The notes under the pieces were generated by a model. The model ran no database searches, was not told the DNA's origin, and saw only the letters and a list, made by a program, of their open reading frames with translations. From IMG/VR virus record IMGVR_UViG_3300042888_001055: 64,000 nucleotides of DNA. One strand, given 5' to 3'. The stretch's first letter is position 1; every line of letters starts with the position of its first letter. The position numbers and the translations under genes were made by a program. Shown piece by piece: positions 29,981 to 35,017 of the stretch. Origin of the DNA: a virus.

Positions 29981-30065
29981 TGGTGGAGATTACCGGGATC
30001 GAACCAGTCGTGCTATAAAGCGGCGGATTTACAGTCCACTGCATCACCATTGATGCTTCATCTCC
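29981..30065 (-). tRNA. tRNA-Tyr(GTA)
   Basis: Class II cloverleaf. Confidence 0.92.
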
Positions 30066-30402: not shown

Positions 30403-30477
30403 TGGAAGAGCATAGGAGAATCGAACTCCTCTTCTTAGGATGAAAACCTAATGTCCTAACCGATAGACGAATGCTCC
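30403..30477 (-). tRNA. tRNA-Glu(TTC)
   Basis: Cloverleaf, CCA. Confidence 0.9.
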
Positions 30478-31792: not shown

Positions 31793-32353
31793 CTAACTTA
31801 ATAATATTCTACTATGTTTTGGAACTCCTGCTAACAAATATTCCATTTGATCAGCAAGAATTGTTCTATGTTGTAATATCATATTTTCGTAGTGGTTTGG
31901 GATGTATGGTAAGTATAGTAATTCCATACGCACTTCTTTTAAACTCTTATGTCCTTTTTTGCTGTTACAATCTTTACATGCTGTAACAACATTCATCCAA
32001 GTATTTTCACCACCTTTGCTTCTAGGGACAATGTGGTCACGACTTAACAGATGATAGTTTGGAAACTGTTCACCGCAATAAGCACATACATGTCTATCAC
32101 GACCAAACAATGTTTTATTAGTTAGTGCAACACATGAATGCTTGTATGGATTGAATCCATGACCTTTAATAGCAATAATGCTACTAGCTTCTAGGTAACT
32201 TAATGTACCGTCATTTTGTATACCACCACGATATTTAGCTACAATATTACCCATTGACCAAGCGATGGCATCTTTTGCTTTATAGGTAATTGCGTCATCA
32301 TTTGATATCCATTGCCGGGGAACTCCCGAGATATCTAGTGCTAGAACAGCCAT
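31793..32353 (-). CDS. HNH endonuclease (McrA-like)
   Basis: RDRHVCAYCG...DHIVPRSKGG...NVVTACKDCNSKK; start MAVLALD with SD AAGGAG. Confidence 0.9.
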   Translation of the reverse strand: MAVLALDISGVPRQWISNDDAITYKAKDAIAWSMGNIVAKYRGGIQNDGTLSYLEASSIIAIKGHGFNPYKHSCVALTNKTLFGRDRHVCAYCGEQFPNYHLLSRDHIVPRSKGGENTWMNVVTACKDCNSKKGHKSLKEVRMELLYLPYIPNHYENMILQHRTILADQMEYLLAGVPKHSRILLS

Positions 32354-32400
32354 AGTGTACTCCTTTTCTGTTATTATCACTATATGTATTTAATGCCTAA

Positions 32401-34233: not shown

Positions 34234-34310
34234 TGGTGCGACCGGAAGGACTTGAACCTCCGACTCCCTATTTCGTAGACAGGTACTCTAATCCACTGAG
34301 TTACGGTCGC
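34234..34310 (-). tRNA. tRNA-Arg(ACG)
   Basis: Cloverleaf. Confidence 0.92.
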
Positions 34311-34390
34311 ATTCTAAAACACACATAGTACACCCTAGTCAACAGGGTTGCCGCACAGGCCATACTGTTCAACTATGTATGCTTTAGAAT
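34311..34390 (-). ncRNA. Closed-stem small RNA C
   Basis: 19-bp stem ATTCTAAAGCATACATAGT/ACTATGTGTGTTTTAGAAT with two G-U pairs on minus strand. Confidence 0.6.
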
Positions 34391-34539
34391 GCCCAGTATC
34401 ACTACCGGACATGATAGGGTCAATACCCTACCCAGTAGTCTTACTAACATGTTGTCTCCATGCTTTCATATATACTGTCCGCCCATTCTATACATTTAAC
34501 GCTGTATTACGGCTCTCGTTGCCTATTCACGCTATCTAT

Positions 34540-34707
34540 TCAATCAGTATAAGTTAGTTGGTTAACTTTCTTAGTAGCCTCATGATGGACTTTAGCACGT
34601 TGAAATTTATCCTCTATCAACTGTGCTACTTGCTCCTTAGTCAAAACATGATTGCTAAACCAATCTTGTTTGTTTTCAGAAGTTTTGTATTCTATCTGTT
34701 CATCCAT
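34540..34707 (-). CDS. Small hypothetical protein (55 aa) right after the attenuator terminator
   Basis: MDEQIEYKTSENKQDWFSNHVLTKEQVAQLIEDKFQRAKVHHEATKKVNQLTYTD; SD GAGGA. Confidence 0.5.
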   Translation of the reverse strand: MDEQIEYKTSENKQDWFSNHVLTKEQVAQLIEDKFQRAKVHHEATKKVNQLTYTD

Positions 34708-34717
34708 TTATTGTCAA
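34689..34717 (-). promoter_or_regulatory. Early sigma70-type promoter at head of tRNA array
   Basis: TTGACAATAAATGG...TAGAAT, 17-nt spacer. Confidence 0.7.
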
Positions 34718-34728
34718 ATCCTCTCTGT

Positions 34729-34768
34729 AAAAGCAAAAACCCCTGAGACTTTTTAGTTCCCAGGGGTT
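34729..34768 (-). terminator. Intrinsic terminator (putative attenuator)
   Basis: CCCCTGGGAAC-TAAAAA-GTCTCAGGGG-TTTTTGCTTTT. Confidence 0.85.
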
Positions 34769-34795
34769 AGATAAATGTGTTATGATGTTAACTTG

Positions 34796-34933
34796 TTACC
34801 TAGTCCCCGGGGTTCTCTCTTGGTTATCATTTGAACCGCGAATACTTGTTGGATATGCTGGTACAAAGGATACACTGGCTAACGTTAGCCACTGTCCGGT
34901 ATGCTTCAGCATGTTACAAGTTTTATTCATCAT
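34796..34933 (-). CDS. Putative attenuator leader peptide containing all 20 amino acids (45 aa)
   Basis: MMNKTCNMLKHTGQWLTLASVSFVPAYPTSIRGSNDNQERTPGTR; ends 28 nt before terminator; 3' end complementary to terminator 5' arm. Confidence 0.65.
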   Translation of the reverse strand: MMNKTCNMLKHTGQWLTLASVSFVPAYPTSIRGSNDNQERTPGTR

Positions 34934-34988
34934 AGTCTCTTATTTAGTCCTGGGTGTAAAAATTACACCTTTTTTCAATTCATGCTGA

Positions 34989-35017
34989 AGTATAGCACAA
35001 GTAGGCATTAATGTCAA
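34989..35017 (-). promoter_or_regulatory. sigma70-type promoter for the leader (late-type CTAAATA also at 34941-34947)
   Basis: TTGACA-17nt-TATACT. Confidence 0.75.

Follow-up and report, generated by a model that had tools for sequence, protein, structure and literature searches.

Organization of the leader unit

The element under study occupies about 290 nt of DNA from an uncultured lake phage and lies at the 5′ head of a tRNA array. All coordinates refer to the window, i.e., the whole 64-kb stretch of DNA that was analyzed, and all features given below are located on the minus strand. The following order was found on this strand: a promoter, a 5′ hairpin, a UTR motif, a 45-codon ORF, and a terminator hairpin with a U tract; then a second promoter, a 55-aa ORF, a conserved non-coding stretch of about 230 nt, and a series of 27–28 tRNA genes of the same strand. 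A preliminary description of the window had proposed that this region is an attenuator, in which a leader peptide containing all 20 amino acids gates the tRNA operon.

The promoter of the leader unit (34989–35017) is of the sigma-70 type, with 11 of the 12 consensus positions, a 17-nt spacer, and an extended −10 TG, in agreement with the preliminary description. A promoter of the same form was present 29–78 nt 5′ of the start codon in 56/56 distinct relatives, all of which also have the leader ORF placed between promoter and terminator. The MFE fold of the transcript contained a 5′-proximal hairpin (34953–34969), the stem of which is kept in the relatives; the alignments show that its loop varies and that one U-A pair is exchanged for C-G. 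On the plus strand, this hairpin looks terminator-like. Next to it lies a 5′-UTR motif, designated region 0 (34940–34953), which is complementary to the terminator spacer and the terminator 5′ arm and is invariant in 33/33 aligned sequences. The late-promoter-like box reported earlier falls within region 0.

The leader ORF itself (34796–34933, 45 codons and a stop codon) is preceded by a poor and unconserved Shine–Dalgarno-like sequence, and its start codon is paired in the full-length MFE fold. Several segments in and around the ORF take part in RNA pairing. The 5′ strand of helix P1 (34916–34934) comprises the start codons and codons 4–6; its partner, the P1 3′ strand (34781–34796), is non-coding, nearly invariant, and located in the loop of the 2:3 hairpin described below. 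Region 1 (34833–34846, codons 30–34) is a weak partner of region 2 (34796–34812), which consists of the last five codons with the stop codon and forms the 5′ strand of the antiterminator. Region 3 (34758–34774), made up of a spacer pentamer and the terminator 5′ arm, is the strand common to the terminator and the antiterminators.

The intrinsic terminator (34729–34768) is composed of a hairpin (34768–34738) and a U tract reaching 34729. The hairpin, recognized as a GC-rich terminator already in the preliminary description, has 13 pairs and one bulge and a folding energy of −18.6 kcal/mol, the mean over the relatives being −18.0 kcal/mol. A simple terminator scan overlooked it because its loop is larger than the limit of the scan. 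The stem covaries: pairing was 99% over 33 sequences, 9 of which carry a compensatory double change from C-G to A-U. A run of at least five U residues followed the stem in 40/51 distinct relatives, with only three or four U in the other 11/51.

The second sigma-70-type promoter (34689–34717) is situated directly 3′ of the terminator and also has 11 of the 12 consensus positions; it corresponds to the downstream promoter placed earlier at 34717. The start codon of the 55-aa ORF (34540–34707) lies within the spacer of this promoter, and the same was observed in the relatives listed. Pfam and PHROG provided no significant family for the 55-aa ORF. The first gene of the array encodes tRNA-Arg with the anticodon ACG (34234–34310). 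ARAGORN identified 27 tRNA genes with 24 distinct anticodons, and a weak 28th tRNA was detected with Rfam at 29984–30065. Within 34729–35017, no match to a T-box or any other Rfam family was obtained at E values up to 1.

Distribution and genomic context

The module was found in about 100 contigs of uncultured freshwater phages. These roughly 100 loci came from four pattern scans of IMG/VR and provided 78 copies of the element, 60 of them distinct at the nucleotide level, encoding 49 distinct peptides of 43–49 residues; loci L003–L007 were reached via metagenome proteins related to a neighboring gene. A profile search of 1.84 billion representatives added about 25 clusters with peptides of 43–59 residues, mutually less than 50% identical by construction of the library. 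The promoter, leader ORF, and terminator were present in 6/6 divergent members inspected, and a tRNA array was present in 4/4 of those with enough downstream DNA. The architecture is therefore kept by members from different 50%-identity peptide clusters. Related DNA was present in many lake-water metagenomes, while DNA and protein searches of cultured-phage records gave no relative of the locus, and a back-translated search of IMG/VR with the neighboring hydroxylase gave no match. Lake metatranscriptome contigs from three runs that mapped on relatives span the terminator; DNA carry-over is possible, and these contigs show no ends, so they were counted neither for nor against the reading proposed below.

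A same-strand tRNA gene occurred downstream within 2.5 kb in 40/40 copies having at least 1.6 kb of downstream DNA, and such a gene occurred upstream in 0/58 copies having 2.5 kb of upstream DNA. Upstream genes vary among the relatives, and a homologue of the 55-aa ORF is almost always found downstream. Since the upstream genes vary while the 55-aa ORF and the tRNAs are constant, the module belongs with the tRNA array and not with the adjacent oxygenase island of this phage. An assignment of the peptide as a RiPP precursor for the adjacent island of Asp/Asn-hydroxylase and radical-SAM genes was rejected, the upstream genes being different in most relatives and the downstream ones constant.

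Homologues of the 55-aa ORF (41–95% identity) follow the leader in most relatives. A second promoter was located within 250 nt 3′ of the terminator in 43/56 relatives, usually 2–21 nt after it; in 13/56 relatives no such promoter was present within 250 nt of the terminator. The proposal that the leader gates the tRNA operon stood only in part: the element always heads a tRNA array, but most relatives possess a separate promoter after the terminator, and tRNA transcription therefore does not depend on read-through. In the 13 relatives lacking it nearby, the proximal tRNAs may rely on read-through or on promoters further downstream. Concerning the 55-aa ORF, its start lies inside the spacer of the second promoter, and therefore only read-through RNA carries the ORF. 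The switch modeled below is thus predicted to gate the 55-aa ORF strictly and to be only an addition to tRNA transcription.

Leader peptide and amino acid composition

The translation of the leader ORF was exactly as given previously. All 20 amino acids are present, the last to appear being Glu at codon 39, and 36 distinct codons are used among the 45; ATA, CGA, and TTG codons are absent, as had been stated. There are no codon runs, unlike trp/his/leu-type leaders, which are enriched for the regulating amino acid. Among stop-free 45-codon segments of the window, taken in six frames, 0.8% contained all 20 amino acids; the value for 45-aa segments taken from long ORFs of the window was 1.0%. At least 36 distinct codons occurred in 0.07% of the 45-codon segments, with a mean of 25.8. 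The leader ORF was the sole all-20 ORF among the 82 ORFs of 40–50 aa in the window. The composition noted in the preliminary description thus goes beyond what chance would give.

The length of the leader ORF ranged from 43 to 49 codons, and the frame was open in 78/78 copies. Indels inside the ORF were of 3, 6, or 9 nt only, i.e., in frame, and 1-nt indels appeared just past the stop codon. Only synonymous variation was observed in 12 codon columns, one invariant Ser switched between the TCC and AGT codon families, and 22 residues were invariant among 29 close peptides. The ORF is under purifying selection at the protein level. From the in-frame indels, the synonymous-only columns, the Ser switch, and the open frames, we infer that the ORF is translated in vivo. 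Pfam and PHROG scans yielded nothing significant for the peptide, and neither a family nor a fold match was obtained; matches of the peptide profile to WD40 repeats were judged to be chance similarity amplified by the repeats. An assignment to type I toxin-like mRNAs was also rejected, the peptide having no membrane-spanning hydrophobic stretch.

It had been predicted that related tRNA arrays would be preceded by ORFs of conserved all-20 composition and divergent sequence. The ORF and its completeness are kept in the relatives, but the peptide sequence is conserved rather than divergent. All 20 amino acids were present in 44/49 distinct peptides of the loci and in 60/70 when divergent representatives were added. 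Two null models were applied. In the first, each alignment column was drawn independently, and 21–30% of complete peptides were expected; in the second, the conserved core was fixed and the remaining positions were drawn from the pool of variable sites of the family, with an expectation of 8–22%. The 60/70 complete peptides compare with 22–30% expected across the two nulls. Among 14 representatives of less than 50% identity, 10 were complete versus 8–21% expected (P about 1e-4 to 1e-8, with columns treated as independent in the nulls). Phe, His, and Cys, when missing from their usual column, turn up elsewhere in the peptide. Because the nulls leave aside part of the phylogeny and other epistasis, we regard the all-20 excess as good but not conclusive evidence of selection on completeness. 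The conserved sequence, with its 22 invariant columns, is not needed by a pure composition sensor; the peptide may therefore have another role besides composition sensing.

Alternative RNA structures

Folding of the leader RNA (260 nt) gave energies below those of shuffled sequences (z = −4.5). According to these folds, the terminator 5′ arm has two conserved alternative partners, region 2 and region 0 with the start-codon region. The first pairing, the 2:3 hairpin, overlaps the ORF, takes in the stop codon, and competes with the terminator. Its energy was −20.9 kcal/mol (z = −3.9) for the isolated segment 34815–34758 and, with the terminator 3′ arm left out of the fold, from −15.5 to −29.3 kcal/mol in 56/56 relatives (mean −19.7 kcal/mol). 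By comparison, −10.0 kcal/mol was obtained for the 1:2 hairpin of the window and −8.9 kcal/mol on average for 56 relatives, with some covariation.

The complementarity between the last codons with the stop codon and the terminator 5′ arm, pointed out in the preliminary description, is real and conserved; however, the register given there was one base off, and the second, long-range antiterminator had been missed. The earlier register displayed no covariation, only breaks, and the register shifted by one base was adopted instead. The latter contains an invariant 7-bp G+C core. This core is kept in two reading frames: it is read as Pro-Gly in one clade and as Arg-Gly in another, where a 1-nt shift compensates. 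This points to a constraint at the RNA level. Being invariant, the adopted register is backed by cross-frame conservation and not by classical covariation. Synonymous sites in region 2 do not vary. In the divergent members L066 and L094, the place of the core is taken by perfect complements of the arm, of 11 bp and 8 bp, respectively.

The antiterminator is extended by a helix in which the last sense codon and the stop codon pair with the 5–7 bases just 5′ of the terminator stem. This extension persists although its sequence differs, and from clade to clade its G-C pair moves in concert on the two strands; at −2 to −7 kcal/mol it is a weak helix, in which cognate pairs are favored over non-cognate ones by only about 1 kcal/mol. 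A palindromic hairpin in the middle of the leader, considered previously as a possible pause site, is present in the window but not conserved, the relatives keeping only a 4-bp stem.

In the second antiterminator, one side consists of the UTR motif, the start codons, and codons 4–6, and the other of the post-stop segment, the spacer, and the terminator arm. This long-range duplex (0:3/P1) had −23 kcal/mol and z = −6.8 in the window, with a mean z of −6.05 over 52 members. Pairing of the P1 outer helix was 100% over 33 sequences, the only changes being compatible with wobble pairs. The near-invariance of the UTR motif and of the non-coding post-stop bases is attributed to this duplex. Region 0 held the terminator 5′ arm in 19/60 prefix folds.

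A ribosome on the leader was simulated by masking the covered nucleotides in the fold. Region 2 held the terminator arm as long as the P site was at codons 1 to about 36; Glu39 is at the edge of this modeled sensing window. Once the P site had reached about codon 37, and from there up to the stop codon, region 2 was masked, and the thermodynamic fold then paired the arm with the distant 5′ UTR. The folds are thermodynamic while the switch decision is kinetic, and the long-range UTR contact would presumably be too slow to beat the local terminator hairpin. The simple masking model thus agrees with the claim that a ribosome upstream (within the first 36 codons or so) would leave the antiterminator free and that one near the stop codon would mask it.

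Proposed mechanism

The computed parts of the unit, their conservation and covariation, the composition excess, and the genomic position are most readily combined in the following reading, to which we give somewhat better than an even chance: the region is an attenuator of transcription that depends on ribosomes, with efficient translation leading to termination and slow or stalled decoding to read-through. The strong early promoter would produce a leader RNA encoding the translated 45-residue peptide. Both partners of the terminator arm, region 2 and region 0 with the start-codon region, precede the terminator 3′ arm in transcription and lie in ribosome-covered sequence. A leading ribosome that keeps pace with RNA polymerase would have arrived at the last codons by the time the terminator is made and would mask region 2; the terminator would then form, and transcription would stop at about 34729. 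If no ribosome is at the end of the ORF, translation being absent or slowed at an earlier codon, region 2 would capture the arm, and read-through would extend into the 55-aa ORF and then the tRNA array. Such a direction of the switch is consistent with the calculated energies and with the masking model. Since the 2:3 pairing is much stronger than 1:2 and both arm partners are covered by ribosomes, the predicted default is read-through.

A hungry codon anywhere in roughly the first 36 codons would have the same outcome. Selection would then keep every amino acid in the leader because a hungry codon at almost any position opens the switch. On this basis we suggest, tentatively and with less than even confidence, a physiological trigger: the leader might gauge the decoding capacity of the whole cell and thereby place the phage's own supply of tRNA under feedback. 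Any shortage or cleavage of host tRNA, whether through starvation or tRNA-targeting immunity, would open the terminator and raise the 55-aa protein and the tRNA array; the tRNA supplied by the phage would in turn restore termination.

Phage tRNA arrays are now viewed as a counter to tRNA-cleaving host defenses and to codon mismatch (PMC10264068, PMC11555353). No account of how the expression of such arrays is controlled was found in the literature, and full-text searches returned no description of an element of this type before phage tRNA arrays. If the proposed reading is true, no regulatory circuit would have been described for phage tRNA arrays before this one, and the all-20 translated leader would give them a built-in sensor with feedback. 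The leader's makeup in amino acids, besides its sequence, would be a selected trait, a rare case of selection on the completeness of a peptide itself. The element could also act as a general reporter of translation stress; it is compact and has consensus sigma-70 signals and is therefore directly testable in laboratory strains.

Alternative interpretations

The coding signature would also be expected of an independent early gene for a 45-residue micro-protein. According to this explanation, the promoter and terminator delimit a highly expressed unit, the RNA pairings tune mRNA stability or the number of translation rounds, the synteny is inherited, and the all-20 composition is a by-product. 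The invariant residues, the synonymous variation, and the Ser codon-family switch are consistent with it, as are the separate promoter and terminator of the unit with the second promoter directly after, and the closed 5′–3′ pairing resembles translation-limiting folds of small-protein mRNAs. Such a gene leaves unexplained, however, the stable hairpin, present in all 56 relatives, which takes in the stop codon and is a competitor of the terminator, the G+C core kept in two frames, the start of the 55-aa ORF hidden in the next promoter, and the all-20 composition at 3–9 times the expectation together with the relocation of Phe, His, and Cys; the lack of a family or fold match for the peptide also speaks against it. 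We consider a micro-protein gene rather unlikely.

The weakness of the 1:2 pairing (mean −8.9 kcal/mol) relative to 2:3 (mean −19.7 kcal/mol) makes a classical attenuator of the trp type improbable. In an attenuator of this kind, 1:2 would form without translation, with termination as the default, and a stall over region 1 (about codons 27–40) would free region 2, so that sensing would be limited to Thr, Ser, Ile, Arg, Gly, Asn, Asp, and Gln instead of extending to all 20. All four segments are indeed present, 1:2 occurs in the full-length MFE fold with some double changes, and the logic is the textbook one of the trp, his, and leu leaders. However, ribosome-free prefix folds place the terminator arm in an antiterminator instead of leaving it free, no run of a single codon is present, and the composition excess receives no reason.

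Still less probable is a nascent-peptide sensor, in which the conserved peptide would pause the ribosome at a defined codon through the tunnel in response to some ligand or state, so that the pause and not the tRNA supply sets the switch. TnaC and SecM are arrest leaders with conserved peptides, and in the phage peptide Trp15, the blocks Pro-x-Tyr-Pro and Ile-Arg-Gly, and the terminal Pro-Gly are kept despite synonymous change. Yet known arrest motifs were unmatched, and a SecM/TnaC-like motif was rejected for a misfit of spacing, compared by eye for SecM; at the C terminus, a frame change preserving the RNA but not the peptide has put Arg-Gly in place of Pro-Gly, and the all-20 excess is again unexplained. 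A structured non-coding RNA with an untranslated, accidentally open ORF, an idea raised by the first fold and compatible with the z of −4.5 for 260 nt, the nearly invariant post-stop segment, and the omission of the ORF by gene callers in several relatives, is hardly credible and was rejected on the coding signature (indels in frame only, synonymous-only columns, the Ser codon-family switch, and an ORF open in all 78 copies), with no Rfam family at E up to 1.

Comparison with known systems

By analogy, the system closest to the proposed ribosome-dependent attenuator appears to be the whiB7 uORF attenuator of mycobacteria, a general sensor of translation stress with a short uORF ahead of a Rho-independent terminator (PMC10274678). 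Efficient translation of the whiB7 uORF results in termination, and poor translation in an antiterminator and read-through; the composition of the uORF decides which amino acid shortages are sensed, and that of M. smegmatis contains 19 of the 20 amino acids (PMC10274678). The logic proposed for the phage leader is at work there (PMC10274678), and the earlier statement that no described equivalent was known is too strong. Both elements have a short uORF with broad amino acid content, an intrinsic terminator, and an antiterminator, and there is no sequence relationship between them. They differ in host (a phage here, a bacterium there) and in cargo (the 55-aa ORF and the tRNA array versus a transcription factor). 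Furthermore, the phage peptide is conserved whereas whiB7 uORFs are variable and Ala-rich, and the phage leader is seemingly selected for all 20 residues and has a second, long-range antiterminator at the start region. The novel points of the present element are its occurrence in a phage, a tRNA array as cargo, a completeness that is apparently selected, the conservation of the peptide, and an additional antiterminator.

Leader-peptide attenuators of amino acid operons include trpL, hisL, leuL, thrL, and pheL (PMC1183508, PMC3082878). Like the phage unit, they consist of a promoter, a short leader that is translated, four RNA segments with mutually exclusive pairings, and an intrinsic terminator, and their stop codon is in or beside segment 2; their fold is set by the position of the ribosome, as is proposed for the phage unit. 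Unlike them, the phage leader has no codon run for a single amino acid, its 1:2 pairing is much weaker than 2:3, with read-through and not termination as the predicted default, and its cargo consists of tRNA genes instead of biosynthetic enzymes.

Attenuators of the bmrB/bmrCD type are uORF sensors of ribosome-targeting antibiotics. So is toiL of E. coli, located upstream of topAI-yjhQ, which acts via Rho and stalls at specific codons (PMC12121999). In these systems, as in the proposed phage switch, a short ORF reports general slowing of ribosomes to downstream transcription; in contrast to the phage leader, neither is known to be phage-borne or to gate tRNA genes, and no report describes maintenance of all 20 amino acids in them. 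T-box riboswitches are untranslated and bind one tRNA directly, sensing uncharged tRNA. Their choice between terminator and antiterminator is likewise tied to tRNA status upstream of translation-related genes, whereas the phage leader would sense tRNAs only via the ribosome.

Leader-Module Variants and Matches of the Peptide Profile

Among the related loci carrying the leader module, all from uncultured freshwater phage contigs, L082 (IMG/VR contig 3300027798_002157) is a natural variant with one additional G in the G+C core, the 7-nt part of the antiterminator located in the last codons of the leader ORF. The extra G shifts the reading frame so that the usual stop is bypassed and the ORF ends 9 nt further on, within the post-stop pairing segment; despite the frame shift, the peptide retains all 20 amino acids. 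The 524 kb viral IMG/VR contig 3300027749_002876 carries two differing copies of the module (L020 and L049), and a separate tRNA array lies downstream of each; the contig represents either a chimeric assembly or a megaphage bearing two such arrays.

The profile of the leader-peptide family weakly matched single WD40 repeats in long STAND/WD40 proteins from bacteria (P0018, P0028, P0029, P0036, and P0038), with several matched stretches in each protein. These matches are probably a chance likeness boosted by the repeats.

In plus-strand reading, the hairpin near the 5' end of the leader RNA (34952–34970) resembles an intrinsic terminator whose T run derives from an A run that is conserved in relatives. 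In this orientation, the hairpin might halt antisense transcription.

Region between the Terminator and the tRNA Array

The second promoter (34689–34717, minus strand) contains in its spacer the start codon (34705–34707, minus strand) of the 55-aa ORF; therefore, RNA initiated at this promoter cannot encode the 55-aa protein. The same overlap of start codon and promoter spacer was present in most of the 43 relatives having the second promoter. Pfam and PHROG scans assigned the 55-aa protein to no known family.

The stretch that separates the 55-aa ORF from the first tRNA gene (34311–34539, minus strand) contains a conserved non-coding element, in which a conserved hairpin near 34430–34405 accompanies several blocks rich in G+C. 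The G+C-rich blocks recur at the same location in at least six relatives (L055, L065, L066, L072, L080, and L103), and no Rfam family matched the element, which is apparently structured.

tRNA Array and Putative Host

Apart from the called tRNA genes, the region 29984–30065 (minus strand) matched the Rfam tRNA model with 33 bits and may represent the 28th tRNA of the array; ARAGORN called no gene there. Leaving this match aside, tRNA-Tyr was absent among the called tRNA genes. An HNH homing-endonuclease gene (31793–32380, minus strand) was located within the array, and relatives carry HNH or GIY-YIG genes at similar positions.

The tRNA-Glu gene (30416–30471) had 98% identity over 56 nt to a tRNA-Glu gene of Limnohabitans phage DC31, and all metagenomes in which related DNA occurred originated from lake water. 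Together, this likeness and the common origin hint at a freshwater betaproteobacterium as the host.
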